A DNA stretch of 63,148 nt, filler included, from Atractiella rhizophila (Eukaryota), in the NCBI GenBank assembly GCA_021432655.1. It is 8 parts of 8 records of this genome, joined end to end, with 100 filler letters (N's around TTAATTAATTAA, not from the genome) between each part and the next. Parts side by side here need not be neighbours in the genome. Positions count along the whole stretch, not along the records: positions 1 to 9,262 come from MU272120.1; 7 more parts are not named here. The stretch is one strand, 5' to 3'. Positions 1 to 9,362 of this stretch are shown here, piece after piece (position 1 is the stretch's first letter; each line of letters opens with the position of its first letter). The notes under the pieces were generated by a model. The model did not search any database. It was given only the letters and a program-made list of their open reading frames with translations, and had not been told where the DNA came from. The translations under genes were made by a program, and so were the position numbers.

Positions 1-2041
1 ATTTGTGGAACAGACGAATACGGAACTGCAACAGAAGTCAGAGCGATACAAGATAATGTCACACCTTTAGAGTTGTGCAACAAATATCATGCACTCCATC
101 GACAAATCTACGAATGGTTCGAACTATCTTTTGACCATTTCGGACGGACAACGACGGAGGAGCACACTATGTTTGTCTTCTTTTCTCTCTCTCTGTTGCT
201 CCTTAAACGGACGGGGTTGATGTTCGCCTTTGGACAGGGTGAATCAGAACGCTATCAAAAAGCTTTACGAAAACAACTACCTCTATCCCCTCAAACAAGA
301 ACAACTGTACTGTCCCAGCTGCTCTCGCTTTCTGGCTGATCGATACGTCACGGGTACCTGTCCGAATACTGCCTGTAACTACGAAGATGCGCGAGGCGAT
401 CAATGCGACAAGTGCGGACGGACACATTCTCCCCTTGAGCTGATCAAGCCAAAATGCACCATCTGCGGCTCTCAGCCTGAGACTCGAGAAACTGAGAACC
501 TTTACTTGAAGTTGGGAGAGCTTAGCGGAAGGGTAGCAGACCACGCGAGGGAGATGGCTGGTGTGAAGTTGGAGGATGAGGGTGGAGTGGAGGGGGAAGA
601 GGAGAAAGAAGTGGAAGGAGAGGAGAAAGAGGCTGTGGTTGGAGAGGAAGGAAAAGGAGTTTGGAGCATTCAAGCGAAGAGGATCACGAAGAGTTGGCTC
701 AAGATGGGCTTGCTCGATATGTGCGTGACGAGGGATCTAAAGTGGGGAGTGCCCGTGCCTATGGAACAATGGAAAGACAAGGTGGCGTATGTCTGGTTTG
801 GTGCGTTGATTGGTCGCTCTCCTTCCTCGTAGTTACATGCTGAATAAAAATGGTCATCAGATGCTCCATTTGGATATCCAAGCATTACGGCAAACTATAC
901 GAAGGAATGGGAAAAGTGGTGGAGGAATCCAGACGAGGTTCGCCTCGTGCAGTTCATGGGCAAAGATAACGGTTTGTGCCGAGGGGTACACGCTTGTGTT
1001 TGGTATCTAACTTTGTCGGCACAGTTCGATTTCACACTGTTCTGTGGCCTGCTGCCCTCTTCGGGACGGGGGAGAAATGGACTATGCTCGACTCCATCTC
1101 CGTAACGGATTACTTAAACTAGTTCGTCTTTTCTCATTTAAAAATGTTGGTATATTTATTTCTTTCGGTGTGAATACAGTGAAGGAACCAAATTCTCAAA
1201 GTCTCGAAATGTTGGCGTTTTTGGAGATGCCGTCGCGAAGACTGGCCTACCATCATCCGTCTGGCGTTACACTCTCATTTCTAACCGTCCTGAGTCTGGT
1301 GACTCCCAATTCTCGTGGTCAGACATGGTCCTCAAGTCGAATGGGGAGCTGTTGAACAACATAGGCAATCTTGTAAATCGAGTGATGAAGTTCGCCAACT
1401 CCAAATTCGACTCCGTCATCGGTCCTACCGAGGATGATCTGGAGAAGGGAGTAGAGGCGTTGACAAACGAGATGGACAAGGAGCTTGTGAGGGATGTGGA
1501 GAAGTTGCTTGGAGAATATCAGCGATATATGGAGGCATTCAAATTTCGGCAAGGTCTCAAGATGTTCCTTGAGATCTCCGGACGCGCAAATCAATATCTG
1601 CAGGACAACAAGTTGGACAACAATCTCTTTGCCAATCAGCCAAAACGGTGTTCTCAAGTCCTTCTCCTCGTTTTCAACGTCATCTACCATCTCTCAGCTG
1701 TTCTCAATCCCTTCATGCCTTCGACTGAAGCTTCCATCCTTCGTCAGCTCAATGCTCCTCCTCGTATCCTTTCTGACAAATTTACAATCGACATTTTGCC
1801 TGGACACAAACTCAATAAGGCCGAATATCTATTCAAGAAGATAGAGGAGAAGAATATAGAGATCTGGAGGAGCCAGTTTGGTGGTGGTTCGCAAACGAAC
1901 CCAGAAGAGGAGGAAAAGAAGAGAAAGAAGGAGGAAAGGAAGCGGAAGAAGGAGGAGAAAAAGGCACTGGCTCCAAAAGAGGATCAAGTGACTCCGGTCC
2001 AGAAGAATGTCAAAGAGAATGAGGTGGAAGTAGTTGCTTGA
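1..2041 (+). CDS. MES1: Methionyl-tRNA synthetase, cytosolic (5' partial, spliced)
   Basis: [12 protein letters not shown], zinc knuckles (CPSC..CPNTAC..GDQCDKC..CTIC), [16 protein letters not shown] (KMSKS) motif at ~1190, [12 protein letters not shown] anticodon domain; 4 short GT-AG introns. Confidence 0.95.
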
Positions 2042-2284
2042 TTCCGTTGTGTATTAGCAAGAATTCAATCAGTTTTGTAATTCGACGTTTGCCCTTCCCA
2101 GATGCACTTTTAACTCTCCCACCAATACGAACACTCTAGTGTCTAGGCTCTATGTAGTGTCACAATCAATGGGCAACAAAATATTTGATTTTCGAACCTT
2201 AGCGCGATCTGATCTGCTGCGTCTGTACATTAAATCAGATCCAGGTTTGCAATTGTGACATTTATACGCTCTGTTGAATAGGGG

Positions 2285-2734
2285 ATGGGGGCATTATGTG
2301 GTAAAGAAAGTCATTTCAAAGGTCCGCTCTGCCCATTTGTCTTCAAGTCTTGCGGGAGGTTCATCGTTTCTCAGGAGAAGGGCAGACGCTCGGCGGTCCG
2401 CCATCTTCGTCTTCTAAACCTCAGTCGTATGGTGCCACAAGCAACGTGCTCGGTTCTTCTTCTTCCAAGCCAACTGGCGCCTCTTCAACTGGGGGACATG
2501 CAGATGAGAGAGCAGCTCGAGCAGCTGCAGCTGAAGCTCGGGTGAAAGCAGCTCAGAGCAAGGGCATTCAGGGCACTGGCGGACAGTTGGCTAAGAAAAC
2601 AGATAGCCAAGCGCGGGATGGAGGAAGGAAGGAGGAGGCATTGAGGGTTGGCGCAGAAGGTCGGCAGGAAGACTTACGGGTACGTACTCTCCTCACGAAA
2701 GAATGGTCATTGAGGAGTCGCATAGTGGGATTAA
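2285..2734 (+). CDS. Small N-myristoylated/palmitoylated protein, SVIP-like
   Basis: Spliced MGALCGK..GEGQTLGG..ERAARAAAAEAR..GGQLAKK..LRWD*; MGxxC start and AAAAEAR / LRW motifs resemble small VCP-interacting protein families. Confidence 0.6.
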
Positions 2735-2967
2735 TTCAAATGACCTCTTTTACCATTAAATTTCATTGTCTTAAGCCGTTGCTTGAGTCGATATCCGAGT
2801 TATCTATCTTGTTGCCGTAATTCCATTGTATTTCTATTCTGTTCAAGCGACATGCATCCCAGGACAGCCAGTTTTCATTCGCGTGAGCCCACGTGGAGCC
2901 AATTTGTCCTTAAGCACAGGACAAGCAGAATGTTGCAATCTCGGATCATGGATTCCTCCCACGCCTT

Positions 2968-5153
2968 TTATGAGATCCATTCCACTGAACATATTTCCTC
3001 GAATTCCTTCTCCTGTTCCACTCTCACCAAAGGCACCGTAGCCCAATAACTAAGCGCTGCCTGTCGCTGCATTGCCTTCTCCCTCCTCTCTTCCTCCTGC
3101 GCTCCATTCCACGACAGATCCATAAGAGTTTCAGGAGGTAGAATTGCCTCAAATAAGAGGGAGAGAAGTGCCGTCTGTTCTCCGTAACCTGTTTGGAGGG
3201 TGGAGACTGTATCGACTGTCACGGAGCGATGAGTTGGAGAATGCTAAAGGTGAGATGGGGAGAGGCGAAACTAACCGAAACGAGAGAGAGGCCAAGTCAG
3301 CCATGCAGGCTTTGAGAAAGACCATTCTATGCCTCTCGCCTTCGAGGCATCGATGAGTAGTCGTTCCAAGGCGTCCACTGTCTGCTCCATTTGTTCAATC
3401 ATCGATCGCTGGCCGCCATCCAGAGTCAGCTATTTAGCGAGGACGGCGCGAAACTGGTTAAGGGGATATTGACCAATTGTGCCATCGTGTTTTGTAAGGC
3501 AGAGAGCAGGTCGGAGAGCTCTTGAGATTTTTGCAGGATGTAGTCTGTCCGCAGGTTCTCCCTCACAGAAGCGGAAGAGGTGGTGAGCGAGTCGAGGGAA
3601 GCGAGCGCCGAACTGGAACAACAAATCGTCAAAAGCTTCCTTCCAGGTAAGGCCGAAATGCGAGTGCCTTTTTTTAACCTCTTCAGTTTCATGAGAGAGA
3701 AAGTTACAATTCGTCCCTTCAATCAGGGAACAGTTAAATCGTGTGCAGTTTTAAATAAATGGGTTTTCCAAAACAAACTGTATTCTTTGTCTCCCTCTTC
3801 TGGAAAACAATCTCGCACTCCTTTCTTAGGGCATTTATCTTCCTTGCGGAAAAAGATTACGAAATTGAGGTCTGGAAATAAGTCGCAATTCAGTTGGAAC
3901 GGAAACTGACTGAACGGTACTGAATCGCCTGTCCCGTGGCTGTGGAGGCATGTCCCGGTGAAGTGAACAAGTTAAAGAGTTAAAAGAGAGGTTAACAATG
4001 GCTCCCGCTATCTAAGCCTCCTGCCATCACGGTAAAAGAAAATTCAACACCGTAAATCATAGCTTACACCTTCGGCAGTTCTCACTGACCAGCATACGTC
4101 GTCTTGCCCATAAAGACCGCGTAGCAAATAAAAATCGCAGATGACACTCCTCCACAGAATCTCCCGTCACATCCTCGTGCTACACGGCCTGGGGAACGTA
4201 GCACAAGGCTTCTACGCTATCCTCTACCCCTCCTCCTGGGCACTCAAAGCCGGACCAGGTTTCGCGACTGCGAGCTCCCAGGCGGTCCAAAGCATTGGTT
4301 AGTCAACACGCATGCTTGTTGGTCTTGCACAGCTACTCATTAAATCCTTTCTGCGTTTCGATGTTCGATAATACGATATTGGGATGTTCAACGATCGAAG
4401 CACTGGGATGCCTTGGTGTGGGAATTTATAGTTTCTTTGGCGCTTTGACCGGGGATAGAAGGTTCTTTATTATCACTTGTGGACTCAGAACTGTTTTTGC
4501 GATTGTGGTCGCCTTGAATTGGGGAAAAGAAAATACAGGAGTAGTGGCTTATGAGAGTGTGGTAGCTGTTATCGCTGCCGGCGCCGCTTTGTTATGACGC
4601 TGGAGCATGTAGTGACTTTTATGTAGAGTTCAGCGATCTGGATGGTCTAAGCGAGCGCTAGGAAATTGATGTCCAGATATTGTTTCACACAACCAATTCT
4701 GTGTCATCAATCTCAGAGAGGAGATAACATCAACTGAGGAGAGTGCGAGCGGCACTTTCAAGGAAAAGATTTTTGGTATGACAGTAGAGAAGGCAAATGC
4801 GAGTGATTTCAGCATCGAAAGAAGCAAATGCAAGCTGAATTCACAAAGCGAATAAAATCTCACCTCATCTCATCCGCTATCTCCACGATCTTCCTCGCAT
4901 TTCCCAATCCCTCTACTCCAAGAACGAGGGCAATCCATCCCTTTCTAATTTTCCTGTGATCTGCCAATAAAATTTTCAGCTTCTTGTGATATGGCGTCTC
5001 TGCGACGGTTCCGATTTGCGATGGTCCTAGTTTCGAGGGAGTCTTTGAAGGGGTGCCGTTGGGAGATTCCGGTGGTGCTGAGCTGCCTCGTTTGGTAGGC
5101 GTGGTTGGAGGGGTGTTGAGGGAATAGCGCGGTTTGGCAGAAGGTCGTGGCAT
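2968..5153 (-). CDS. Conserved basidiomycete protein, CINP-like C-terminus; contains 1251-nt first intron
   Basis: Exon 1 5153-4864 (..ETPYHKKLKILL..EIADEM), GTGAG donor at 4863, CAG acceptor at 3613, phase-2 join stays in frame (SSALASLDSL..TMAQL), then RSMIEQ..KARGIEWSFSKPAWLTWPLSRF / VDTV..YWATVPLV..FEEICSVEWIS*. Confidence 0.7.
4141..4597 (+). CDS. Small multi-pass membrane protein (~117 aa), nested antisense in the intron of the 2968-5153 gene
   Basis: ATG 4141, intron 4298-4400 (GTTAGT..AAG), spliced frame open: MTLLHRISRHILVLHGLGNVAQGFYAIL..SIALGCLGVGIYSFFGAL..IAAGAALL*; about 4 hydrophobic segments. Confidence 0.75.
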
Positions 5154-5602
5154 GATGAGAAGACTCGATTCTGGGCACAGGGTGGAGTAGATTGGCTGAA
5201 ATATGCAGGATCAAGCTTCCAGATTTAGCGATGTAGCAATGCGACTGATGGTTCCTTTCGATGCGCACAGTTCAACCACTACTTTAGAAGAACTTGATTT
5301 CCGGACAAGGTCACGTGTCTAGGCGCGATCTTTAGAATAGACAGGCTCAAACAAAAGGAAAGGACTTGAGCCCTATCTATTCTTGTCATCGTAACATTCT
5401 TCACATCCTTTGCATTCTCGCAGACCAGAGACACCCATTTCTTTCTTACTTCACAAACTCCCCGTTAATTGCTTCCGCTCGCTTGCCGCTCCTGCCGCTC
5501 AGGAAGGTCTTCTCTTTTCGCGCAAATTCGTCGACCATCTCCTAGCATCTCCAAAGCCCCAGCGCTCCAGAGCAGTACAAGGAGCTCGTAGAAACAGACA
5601 CG

Positions 5603-7626
5603 ATGTCACGTTCGACATTCCGCGACTCGCGTTTTATCTCTTTTCTTCCCTTCATGCAGCAGAAGAAGTCTTCGCTTTTGGTAGACGAAGAACGCGAGGA
5701 CGAAGTTAACGAACGCACTGCGTTGTTGGAGGACCAAAAGAAGAAGAATGGGAAGGGGAAGAGCACCCCGTTGCCTAAAGGGCAGTTGTTCGTTCTTTGC
5801 GCTATGCGCTTTACAGAGGTCCGTTCCTTTTGTCCCTTCCCCTCCTCGCCTGCCGGAGCTGATTTCGCGTTTGTGGATGACGGCGGGCTGAATAGCCGAT
5901 CGTTTTCACTTGCATCTTCCCATTCGTCAACCTCATGATTGAGGATCTCGGAATCACCGATGATCCGAAGAAGGTGGGATATTACGCTGGGTTCATAGTA
6001 TGTGTTTCAACCTGCATTCTCTGCCTTGCTTTCCGTTGCCGCCGGAGGAGAAACCCACCTATTCATCCTTTCCGTTTCCAAGCTGTGCAAACCTGACGCC
6101 GACGAAACATGACAGGAATCAGTCTTCGCCCTCACCCAATTCCTGACCATCCTTCACTGGGGCCGACTGTCCGACATCATAGGCCGGAAGCCCATCATGT
6201 TAACTGGTCTGGCTGGTGTCACGCTCTCCTCGTTATGTTTCGGACTCTCGACGACCTTCCCTGCCCTTGTCGCAAGTAGAGCGCTAGCTGGAGCCTTGAA
6301 TGGAAACATTGCAGTTTTGAAGAGCATCATTGGAGAAATCACCGATAGATCGAATGTGGCTAGGGCTTTCAGCTTTTTGCCTCTTTGTTGGGCTTTGGGA
6401 GTCGTCATAGGGTTCGTCACTGCCTGCTCCCCTTCTCCTATTTGTAGTTGATTGCTCATAATTCAAACCTAGTCCTCTATTAGGTGGTTTTCTCAGCCGG
6501 CCAGCCACTAGGTATCCGAATGTATTTGGCCGGTTCGAGTTCCTGCATCATTATCCCTACTTTCTACCAACGGCAGCGGCGGCGGTCTTTCCTGCTATCT
6601 CTTTCGTTCTCGGATTCCTCTTTCTCAAAGAGGTTCGTATACCCTCCCAATCTCTCCTTCCCGAGGCATTTCTTCGCATTCATTGATCATGGCTTCACTG
6701 CGCAGACCCTCCCATCCAAAGTGGCTCGATCAAAAGCGGTCGCAGAAGGAGAACCGGTGAAGAAAGTAGAGAGAGCACCGTTGATGGATTTATGGAGCAA
6801 GAAGATAGTCGCGCTCCTCATCAATTATGGACTCCTCGCTCTCGAGACTATATCACTCGATGCACTCATCACCCTCTTTTGTTATACCCGAGTCGAGCTT
6901 GGAGGATTAGGCATGGATGAGTCTAGCATAGGGTCCGTCGTCATCCTTCACTGTTTAGTTGAGTAGTTTGCTGAGTGATGGGAATAGGAAAGCGCTCAGC
7001 TACGCTGGATTCCTCAGTATCCTTGTTCAACTCTTCATCTTCCCTCCGCTGCAGAAGAGGATCGGTACGGTGGCCCTCTACAGGAGCATGATGGCTCTTT
7101 ATCCCATCGTATTTGCCCTCTTCCCTCTATCTAACGTTTTCGCACGAAAGGGAGACATGAAGTCTGCACAAGGAGTATTGTGGACTATACTTACCATTAA
7201 GGTTATAGCCAACATGGTCTATGGTTTGTTTTCCTCCACCCTTCAGTGTCTCATAGCTCTCGTTGCTAACTGAAACTATCCGGATCGACTATAGCCTGTA
7301 ACATGATTCTCGTCAACGCTGCCGCTCCATCTCCATCTCTTTTAGGGACAATGAATGGTATAGCCCAATCGGTGGCGAGCGGCATGCGAGCCTTGGGACC
7401 GGCAGCGTCAACCTCACTTTTTGCACTGAGCGTACAAAAGAATGTGATGGACGGAAAGCTCGTCTGGGTCGTCTTTTCTACCATCGCCGCTGGCGCGTTC
7501 GGGACCAGCTGGTTACTGCATGATGAGAGGACGGATGACGAAAAGAAGGATGAGGAGAGGGAGGAGAACGAGAGGAGGAGGGCAGCTATGGAGGGGTTGG
7601 AGGAGGAGGAGGACGCAATCGCTTGA
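5603..7626 (+). CDS. MFS transporter (ZIF/TCR-Tet-like drug:H+ antiporter type)
   Basis: TPLPKGQLFVL, WGRLSDIIGRKP motif A, ALNGNIAVLKSIIGEITD, LGTMNGIAQSVASGMRALGP; 6 short introns. Confidence 0.9.
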
Positions 7627-7755
7627 GAAGTTTGAAAAAAAGGCCTCTCATGAGGATGTACATTATCTAGTTTTTGGAGTGTAGCAGTACATATAGAATA
7701 TAGAGTTGACGTAATGATACAACATATACCAACATATTACGGGTAAATAGCGTTG

Positions 7756-9262
7756 TTACAGAATGTCTTGACAGAAAGTACCCCACTTCAACACCATTGA
7801 CCGGACCCAAAGTTCATAGTCGCCCTTCGTGGCTTTGAATAACTCCTTATGTTCCCTTTTACAATCATTACACTCTCCCCTGACCTGCTCAGCCCTTCCC
7901 GCCATCTCAATGAGACAAAGACGCTCCCAACGCTTGTGATTCCTGCCACCTTCGGACGATACCTGCTGAGCGCCAGCGATCCGTGTCCCATGCACACCGC
8001 CAGACAAAGGGTAGAAGTCGCGAAGAACGAGCTGGCGAGATGGACATTGTGCTCGCCATTGAGAGAGGCGTGCAACGGGATGGAGGGAACGTCCAAGCTT
8101 TATATATGTCGTGCTTGAAGCCGAGGAAGAGGAGGAGGCGAGGAGGAGCTCGTAGACATAGATGTGCCCTGCAATATCCCTATGTTCAAGAAGAAAAGTT
8201 AGATCACGACAAAAATACGACGACTACAGACTTTGGATTCCGGTCTTTCCCCACTTCAAGCCGGAGCATCAATCGAGTTTCCTCAGGTAGAGATTCATCT
8301 ATCCAGTCCTTAAACTCGATCCATTTTCCATTCACAAATGTGCCTTTCTCCCCAAGAACCTTAATTCTCATCAGTCTCGAGTAAAAGAAAGGTCGAATGG
8401 GACAAACCTGTTTCGAATGCTGAAAACAGAACCGTCGAACTCCATAATCTTCTGCATCGTCCGCAATACCTAACTCTGACAAGCGCAAAACCTCATCCAG
8501 AGCGTCCAAGTCCGTCTGCGTAATACCTGACGAGGTAGTCTGTACCATCCTTGTGCACCGCTTCCCTGTCGAAGTCGTTCCAGAGCACTGAACCCCATCC
8601 TTCCCTGCACTCAATGACGACGGGGTGGGAGAAGGAGAAGGAGCCCGCTTCTTCCGCTTGGGCGTGATTGCAGTGTCAGACACTGAATGTGCGTGATTGG
8701 AGGTGTTGACGGCAGGATGAAGGTGTGTAGCAGTTGAAGACGATGTGGGAGGGACTGGAGCTGGAGGTGAGGAGTAAGTGCGTTGATGATATGGCTTTCG
8801 TGGAGGTGGCGGTAGGGAAGCCCCGACGGAAGACGATAAAGGAGGATGCGAAGGCTGCTGAGGGGTGACCACAGGACGTGGAGGTCGAATCCTAGCAATC
8901 CCATCGGACGGAAAGCTCGCAGGAATAGACGCTGTAGGGATCCAGGGTTCTGGCATTCTCAGCCTGTCGTCCCGCTCAGGCTCAACTTCCACATTGAACA
9001 CTGGTGGGGTCGGGAGCACAGCGACTCCAGGAGCGTGCCACGGTTTAGCGTAGAGGAGTGGTGGCTTGCCGCCATTCCCAACTGTGGAGATGCTTCGAGG
9101 TTTTGGAGGCGACGGAGGCGGCGGTCGTCCCGTCAATGGAAGCTCTGTGGCACTCACTGAAGCTTGCACACCTCCACCTGTGCGGCGGATTCCCAGTGCC
9201 GGATCTGGTAAAGGTCGTGGTCCCCAACCTATCCCTCCATCGTCAGAATCTGGGATACACAA
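7756..9262 (-). CDS. T5orf172/MUG113 (GIY-YIG-like, DUF1766) domain protein, 5' partial
   Basis: Pro-rich N-terminus, QCSGTTSTGKRCTR..FCFQH, GHIYVYEL..YIKLGRSLHPVARLSQWRAQC, ERLCLIEM..CNDCKREHKELF. Confidence 0.8.
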
Positions 9263-9362
9263 NNNNNNNNNNNNNNNNNNNNNNNNNNNNNNNNNNNNNN
9301 NNNNNNTTAATTAATTAANNNNNNNNNNNNNNNNNNNNNNNNNNNNNNNNNNNNNNNNNNNN
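9263..9362. other. Artificial contig linker
   Basis: 100 nt of N with central TTAATTAATTAA (stops in six frames). Confidence 0.99.

Follow-up and report, generated by a model that had tools for sequence, protein, structure and literature searches.

In Atractiella rhizophila, a root fungus, the gene for a homologue of CINP carries a second, complete gene on the opposite strand within its first intron. The pre-mRNA of the host gene is spliced over 1251 nt to give one 269-aa protein with the CINP fold, and a separate plus-strand RNA lies wholly inside this intron, has an intron of its own removed and contains an intact hydrophobic frame of 117 codons. We regard it as probable (roughly 0.7) that this is a true opposite-strand pair of a host and a nested gene, in which an old intron gained a gene by the mechanism proposed below.

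The window analysed here is a stretch of DNA of 63,148 nucleotides. The locus is present twice in the assembly, on contigs C941 (the window) and C513, and the two copies are 96% identical across 9.3 kb. Since the sequencing run X3 contains both allele sets at about equal depth, the copy on C513 most likely represents the second haplotype of this locus. Among proteins, host exon 1 is matched best by a hypothetical protein of 270 aa from A. rhizophila (P0001, 96% identical), which is the public model of the second copy. Splicing was judged from the contigs of three runs, X1, X2 and X3. These contigs are presumed to derive from RNA, which is backed by their precise GT-AG skips, and the transcript strand was taken from the orientation of the splice sites and not from stranded reads. 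X1 and X2 stem from one study of a near-identical strain, which is filed under a different organism label, and their sequence deviates by a few per cent from that of the window. The features of the locus are the following:

4864..5153, minus strand: host exon 1 (CINP-like), with the ATG at 5153; it encodes a low-confidence N-terminus rich in Pro, Ser and Thr and the first two helices
3613..4863, minus strand: host intron 1, 1251 nt, phase 2, with donor GTGAGA, a TTGAC branch-like site and a CAG acceptor; joint 3612/4864 in X3
3474..3612, minus strand: host exon 2, from the X3 joint, the model of the second copy (P0001) and the frame
3409..3473, minus strand: host intron 2, 65 nt, phase 0; joint 3409/3477 in X3, in agreement with P0001
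3276..3408, minus strand: host exon 3, which holds the conserved aromatic motif of the family, G170...W180-x-x-W183...F188 (P0001 numbering)
3216..3275, minus strand: host intron 3, 60 nt, phase 1; joint 3215/3276 (CT..AC) in X3
2968..3215, minus strand: host exon 4 with the stop codon, from the model of the second copy and the frame
4025..4140, plus strand: 5' leader of the nested gene, minimum extent; record 3 of X1 begins at 4025 and record 6 of X2 at 4030, and contig starts may differ from the true starts
4141..4297, plus strand: nested gene exon 1, with the ATG at 4141 and the weaker fourth hydrophobic stretch
4298..4400, plus strand: nested gene intron, 103 nt, GTTAGT...AAG, phase 1; joint 4296/4400 in X1 and X2
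4401..4597, plus strand: nested gene exon 2 with the stop codon, encoding three hydrophobic helices

The four host exons form a frame of 810 nt. The two minus-strand ORFs on either side of the long intron are joined in frame and in phase 2 by the GTGAGA donor at 4863 and the ...TTGAC...CCAG acceptor at 3613. The corresponding junction is present in an X3 contig that skips 1251 nt with CT..AC ends, at a depth of 21.7 and with 59 letters on its shorter side; this long joint stems from one contig in one run. P0001 joins the same host halves. A phmmer search with the host protein returned 44 proteins at E up to 0.001, and the best stretches of 29 of the 43 non-self matches bridge the junction (the remaining 14 cover one side only), so the halves are not separate in the orthologues. 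The initial annotation had merged the two minus-strand ORFs into a single CINP-like protein, and the X3 joint, the public model, the bridging homologues, the family profile and the predicted fold all bear this out.

One could also assume three independent genes, two on the minus strand that flank one on the plus strand, or an artefact of the assembly. In this copy, a frame that leads into exon 2 indeed starts with an ATG at 3692, and the one-sided homologue matches would agree with separate genes. However, the frame from this ATG is broken by a one-base insertion both in the second copy and in X1 and was dropped as a candidate ORF, and both halves are covered by the X3 joint, the bridging homologues and the CINP fold. 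The junction sits inside the second long helix of the host protein (residues 81-106), so that no domain is formed by one half alone. An artefact is argued against by the same layout on two separately assembled contigs. Taken together, we consider this alternative extremely unlikely. A plus-strand ORF at 3544-3909 was rejected too, as a one-base insertion breaks it in the second copy.

The smaller host introns are also visible in X3. Two letters stand between the ends of the joint 3409/3477, which is explained by the allele of the second copy, and a reading of host intron 2 with 44 nt was rejected, being contradicted by this joint and by P0001. Joints in this stretch reveal four other introns, of 46, 60, 65 and 103 nt. 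The suggestion that typical introns here have about 50 nt is therefore roughly right at the local scale. A motif scan for local intron lengths performed no better than on shuffled sequences and gave no length distribution. Within host intron 1 there are three branch-plus-YAG decoys (4699, 4268 and 3940), each of which leads to an early stop if used. X3 is uncovered over 3684-4860 and X2 over the host exons; we treat these as holes in the contigs and not as opposite expression of the two genes.

X1 contains an unspliced record over the host acceptor (3482-3658, depth 2.4). This record stops at 3658 and continues with letters that match 3709-3738 (28/30 by eye), i.e. with a skip of 50 nt, which in this strain reads GT...AT on the minus strand and is seen in this one record at a depth of 2.4. 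The skip is either a deletion in the strain or a small intron of an RNA that starts within the long intron.

The nested gene itself is directly visible as a transcript. The joint 4296/4400 (GT..AG, with the cut at +1) is seen in X1 and X2, and the records of the nested gene span 4025-4606, wholly within the host intron and on the plus strand as judged by the splice sites. The splice unites two frames into one ATG-to-stop ORF (4141-4297 and 4401-4597) for a hydrophobic product of 117 aa. The earlier proposal of a complete, spliced plus-strand gene inside the host intron is thus confirmed by the removal of a 103-nt GT-AG intron in both runs. In a hydropathy profile, three hydrophobic stretches stand out clearly and a fourth, weaker one lies near the N-terminus, and a low-confidence model of exon 2 alone consists of three helices (pLDDT 61.9). 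Judged from its amino acid sequence, the product is most likely a small membrane protein with three to four predicted passes.

A comparison of the copies and strains is informative in regard to the coding nature of this frame. The frame is intact in the second copy, with four synonymous and three conservative replacement codons between the copies. The listed differences of X1 and X2 touch at least 11 nested codons (4 silent, 7 replacement, none giving a stop), and 13 further X1/X2 differences of this stretch lie outside the 11-codon tally. The signal of selection on the frame is weak, with 4:3 between the copies and 4:7 among the listed X1/X2 differences. In the host gene, the copies differ by 19 synonymous and 12 replacement codons, and host intron 1 has 1246 nt in the second copy instead of 1251 nt. 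The flanking parts of this intron carry indels between the copies, whereas the nested frame is without stops or frameshifts. A run of 345 nt over the putative promoter and the leader of the nested gene (3832-4176) is identical between the copies, which was reached in 0 of 20,000 uniform shuffles. Promoter constraint was nevertheless dropped as an explanation, since the 9.3 kb contain further identical runs of 574, 383, 369, 333 and 292 nt.

The modest synonymous excess and the failure of exon-level queries to find a homologue might suggest that the nested gene originated de novo after the intron had been enlarged in another way, or that it is a spliced non-coding RNA with an incidental frame. 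We judge this distinctly unlikely. The frame has remained free of stops and frameshifts in both copies and across the listed X1/X2 differences, although its flanks carry indels, and splicing creates one ATG-to-stop ORF with regular hydrophobic helices. Moreover, the queries of 52-66 aa are too short to exclude distant relatives. Rfam gave no match over 3560-4900 at E up to 5, i.e. no intronic snoRNA or other known RNA.

The history of host intron 1 can be read from nine related fungal loci that were obtained by a motif scan of metagenomes; they are most similar to Microbotryomycetes proteins and represent about five lineages. A phase 2 GT donor is present at the aligned codon in 9/9 loci. With the donor fixed at this codon, the introns of all nine loci, which are computed and not RNA-verified, measure 76, 75, 75, 75, 71, 71, 137, 71 and 70 nt, and the acceptor restores the frame that matches the orthologues. 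A free fit put the intron at the same alignment column in four of the nine loci. Fits based on the score alone chose other, weaker donors in several loci and were discarded as misplaced. In flanks of up to 3 kb around the nine loci, no match to the nested gene was better than E 0.2.

The position of the intron is hence ancestral and older than the nested gene, with the sampled loci including no close relative of Atractiella. The later insertion of the nested gene, as supposed at the outset, is in line with an intron at the same codon and in the same phase that is short (70-137 nt) and empty in 9/9 related loci; the intron length in relatives had been named as a check. Because all nine loci have a short, empty intron there, an old short intron appears to have acquired a gene within the lineage of Atractiella, and the simplest reading is that about 1.1-1.2 kb were gained in this line.

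The origin of the inserted gene was addressed with exon-level pieces of 52-66 aa as homologue queries. In the word index of the protein collection, neither the 51 candidates for exon 2 nor the 2 for exon 1 contained a homologue, and pattern scans of metagenomes, of 185,579 prokaryote genomes and of plasmids likewise gave none. Neither NCBIfam nor Pfam (with a limit of E 10) matched the nested exons, and a fold search with the weak exon-2 model gave no match at E 0.001. Exon-level queries of the own genome revealed no paralogue; a match on contig C265 (E 1.45) was not confirmed. The leads from the atlas point to small bacterial membrane proteins, with scores of 0.88 and 0.80 that are below the threshold of the tool. 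The second of these, DUF4345 (PF14248, rank 21), resembles the nested product in size and in its hydrophobic, helical make-up, but Pfam matched neither exon up to E 10, and its score of 0.80 is in the range of chance matches.

These results bear on the possibility that the nested gene was acquired horizontally, with another fungus as the most plausible source, and then put into the intron. The lack of a paralogue in the genome, of a match in the 3-kb flanks of the nine related loci and of a match in the protein collection by word searches would agree with a transfer, and so would a possibly patchy distribution and the weak atlas leads to bacterial proteins. In contrast, the nested gene has a GC content of 0.52 and a GC3 of 0.525, which are close to the values of the host gene (0.517 and 0.544) and to the GC3 of three neighbouring exons (0.545-0.586), and it possesses a spliceosomal intron. 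A test for foreign composition or a lack of introns consequently failed. Since the composition is native-like and the gene has its own spliceosomal intron, both a recent bacterial gene and a plain retrocopy are argued against, and the scans of prokaryote genomes and plasmids are on the same side. Horizontal transfer, which the initial annotation had considered as the possible origin, therefore did not find support, as no bacterial, plasmid or other donor was detected with the exon-level queries; it appears rather unlikely to us.

There are also no signs of a mobile element. No convincing inverted repeat and no conserved target-site duplication was found around the nested gene, i.e. none of the transposon ends expected of Pack-MULE-like cargo. 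In the genome, the intron flanks 3613-4140 and 4598-4863 match the second copy only and are single-copy apart from this allele. An exact direct repeat of 11 nt is located near both ends of the long intron (3656-3666 and 4795-4805). As a target-site duplication it was rejected, because its probability is 0.002 if only the ends are considered and 0.14 for anywhere in the intron, both calculated post hoc, and because it is altered in the second copy. A short repeat with a period of 31 nt is present near the donor (4793-4834), and both of its units show the same difference to the second copy. As the searches revealed neither a homologue or paralogue of the nested gene nor a donor site for it, we arrive by elimination at a native gene that was moved.

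The pair was probably formed as follows. A segment of about 1.1-1.2 kb with an intron-bearing eukaryotic gene, its promoter and its terminator would have entered the short ancestral intron, with the donor and the branch and acceptor sites of the host being kept. The insertion was likely tolerated because the nested gene is antisense, so that its splice and polyadenylation signals would be invisible to the host spliceosome. Transcription of the host would proceed leftwards from above 5153, and the spliceosome would pair 4863 with 3613, thereby bypassing the three decoys. The nested gene would be transcribed rightwards from a putative promoter within 3613-4025 and end at or beyond 4606. Head-on encounters of the polymerases, over about 600 nt, would require both genes to fire together, and the mature mRNAs would have no exon sequence in common. 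Most likely, host and nested gene have no functional relation, and each is regulated on its own. For animals, insertion is described as the main route to nesting, without a functional link between the genes (PMC3488318, PMC3814207 and PMC11694760).

A different role of the nesting is conceivable, in which it has been retained as a regulator and induction of the inner gene lowers the splicing or the completion of the CINP mRNA through head-on transcription. The head-on geometry is given by the sequence, X1 possesses the unspliced record over the host acceptor next to spliced nested RNA, and interference by nested genes is reported for animals (PMC3814207 and PMC3192792). However, the unspliced record is a single contig of low depth that possibly represents pre-mRNA or DNA, and contig depths cannot rank genes. 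This record is the sole hint that head-on collisions, proposed at the outset as an interference with host transcription, would matter. Furthermore, the pairs in mammals are mostly without a positive or negative relation in expression (PMC11694760). We therefore grant such a regulatory function very little probability and return to the insertion of an independent gene as the preferred reading.

Opposite-strand nesting is already known and common in animals, and it is well supported that the Atractiella locus represents a new fungal example in which the ancestral state is visible. In the reports on Drosophila (PMC3814207) and on mouse and human (PMC11694760) and in a review (PMC3488318), the inner gene lies wholly inside a long, 5'-most intron. 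The Atractiella pair also shares with the animal pairs that the host is more conserved and older than the nesting, that the genes are on opposite strands and that no functional link is evident. In contrast to animals, the ancestral intron had only about 70-140 nt here, and the gene with its control regions makes up nearly the whole present intron. Another difference is that nested genes of animals are often young duplicates, whereas no parent copy was found for the nested gene of Atractiella.

Nesting is called rare in compact fungal genomes in PMC4363200, which agrees with what had been assumed for this locus, and according to the same paper annotation filters in fungi can drop inner genes. 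The nested protein is absent from the word-search matches in the protein collection, and the host protein is present there. No publication on nested genes in basidiomycetes was found in the literature searched. The locus is a clean case of nesting in a fungus, in which both splices are supported by RNA and the state before the insertion is visible: an intron of 70-140 nt took up a whole gene. The resulting intron of 1251 nt is still spliced in a genome in which the neighbouring introns have 46-103 nt, and the locus could serve as a test case for the recognition of long introns and for head-on transcription in a compact genome.

The identification of a fungal CINP may matter even more than the nesting. 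Pfam gave nothing over the cut-off for the host family, and 4/29 members weakly touch a CA109-like entry below the cut-off. A profile of 29 sequences, in contrast, ranked the four PDB sequences of CINP on top (E 1.9e-7 to 3.3e-7, positions 61-241), with the next match at 0.006. The model of the host protein has a pLDDT of 84.7, with values of about 50-56 for residues 1-50, and contains helices at 55-79 and 81-106. In a Foldseek search with this model, ranks 1-6 were taken by entries of the CINP complex, with E-values of 1.5e-4 (8cih_A) and 3.7e-4 (9gwj_B, 196 aa, which is CINP) versus 0.14 for 9gwj_A. VIA alignment of the host with CINP gave a Z of 19.1 and an rmsd of 2.1 Å over 192 residues, the first unrelated entry reaching 13.1, and the fold is nearer to CINP than to its paralogue C1orf109. 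On the basis of profile and fold, the host is a CINP homologue.

In comparison with human CINP, a subunit of the SPATA5-SPATA5L1-C1orf109-CINP complex (55LCC; PDB 8cih, 8rhn, 9gwj and 9lgo), the host protein has the same helical fold over 192 residues at 19-21% identity. The profile alignment places a P-x-x-x-T-W motif region and a C-terminal W...P helix in both proteins. The disordered N-terminus of the host is longer than in human CINP and Arabidopsis OAP1 (PMC12332008). With respect to possible partners, the genome contains a gene for a Drg1/SPATA5-like AAA ATPase in two copies (L032, G000:C367:6108-10256, and L033, G000:C4), which is likely the partner of the host protein and a candidate for this role. 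In contrast to 55LCC, SPATA5L1 and C1orf109 were not found among the candidates scored: no SPATA5L1 was named among the 25 of 72 AAA candidates that were scored, with two loci compared with the PDB, and the best E-value of the C1orf109 family PF15011 was 0.36.

[quoted passage not shown] A role of CINP in late 60S maturation together with Drg1/SPATA5 is described for human and plant in PMC12332008, PMC11055677 and the preprint bioRxiv 10.1101/2025.11.07.687187. It is possible, but doubtful, that basidiomycetes, including yeasts, kept CINP as a stand-alone cofactor of Drg1 in a minimal version, without SPATA5L1 and C1orf109, of a complex otherwise ascribed to animals and plants. That Atractiella in addition uses the antisense gene as a conditional brake on the splicing of the 1251-nt intron, and hence on late 60S maturation by a stand-alone CINP-Drg1 pair, seems a very remote prospect to us.

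The taxonomic distribution of the homologues deserves attention as well. Ten homologues were looked up, and the 9/10 that carry names are all from basidiomycetes, including Microbotryomycetes, Mixia, Tilletiaria, Pleurotus, Tulasnella and Kockovaella. The CINP homologues among P0002-P0044 are spread over Pucciniomycotina, Ustilaginomycotina and Agaricomycotina, yeasts included. The preprint (bioRxiv 10.1101/2025.11.07.687187) calls CINP "eumetazoan-specific" and absent from single-celled organisms. This is contradicted by the basidiomycete homologues, yeasts among them, although the species set of the preprint may have excluded basidiomycetes. Together with plant OAP1, fungal CINP points to an old eukaryotic factor that was lost in budding yeast. 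In the literature searched, no publication on fungal CINP was found. Entries for fungal CINP-like proteins may already exist in PANTHER or InterPro.

Some further observations concern the surroundings of the locus. A small plus-strand gene at 2400-2820, whose frame gave no Pfam match, has a 46-nt intron (in the region of 2679-2724) that is spliced in all three runs, with a depth of 496 in X3. On the other side, an X3 record runs unbroken over 4973-5479, from host exon 1 to the start of a divergent, plus-strand transporter-like gene. Overlapping leaders or a very short common promoter are possible for the host and this gene, with the caveat that contigs do not show single transcripts. Paired runs of N with 44 nt recur about every 9.2 kb in the window, at 9263-9362 and in six further places, and contig C941 covers positions 1-9262 only.
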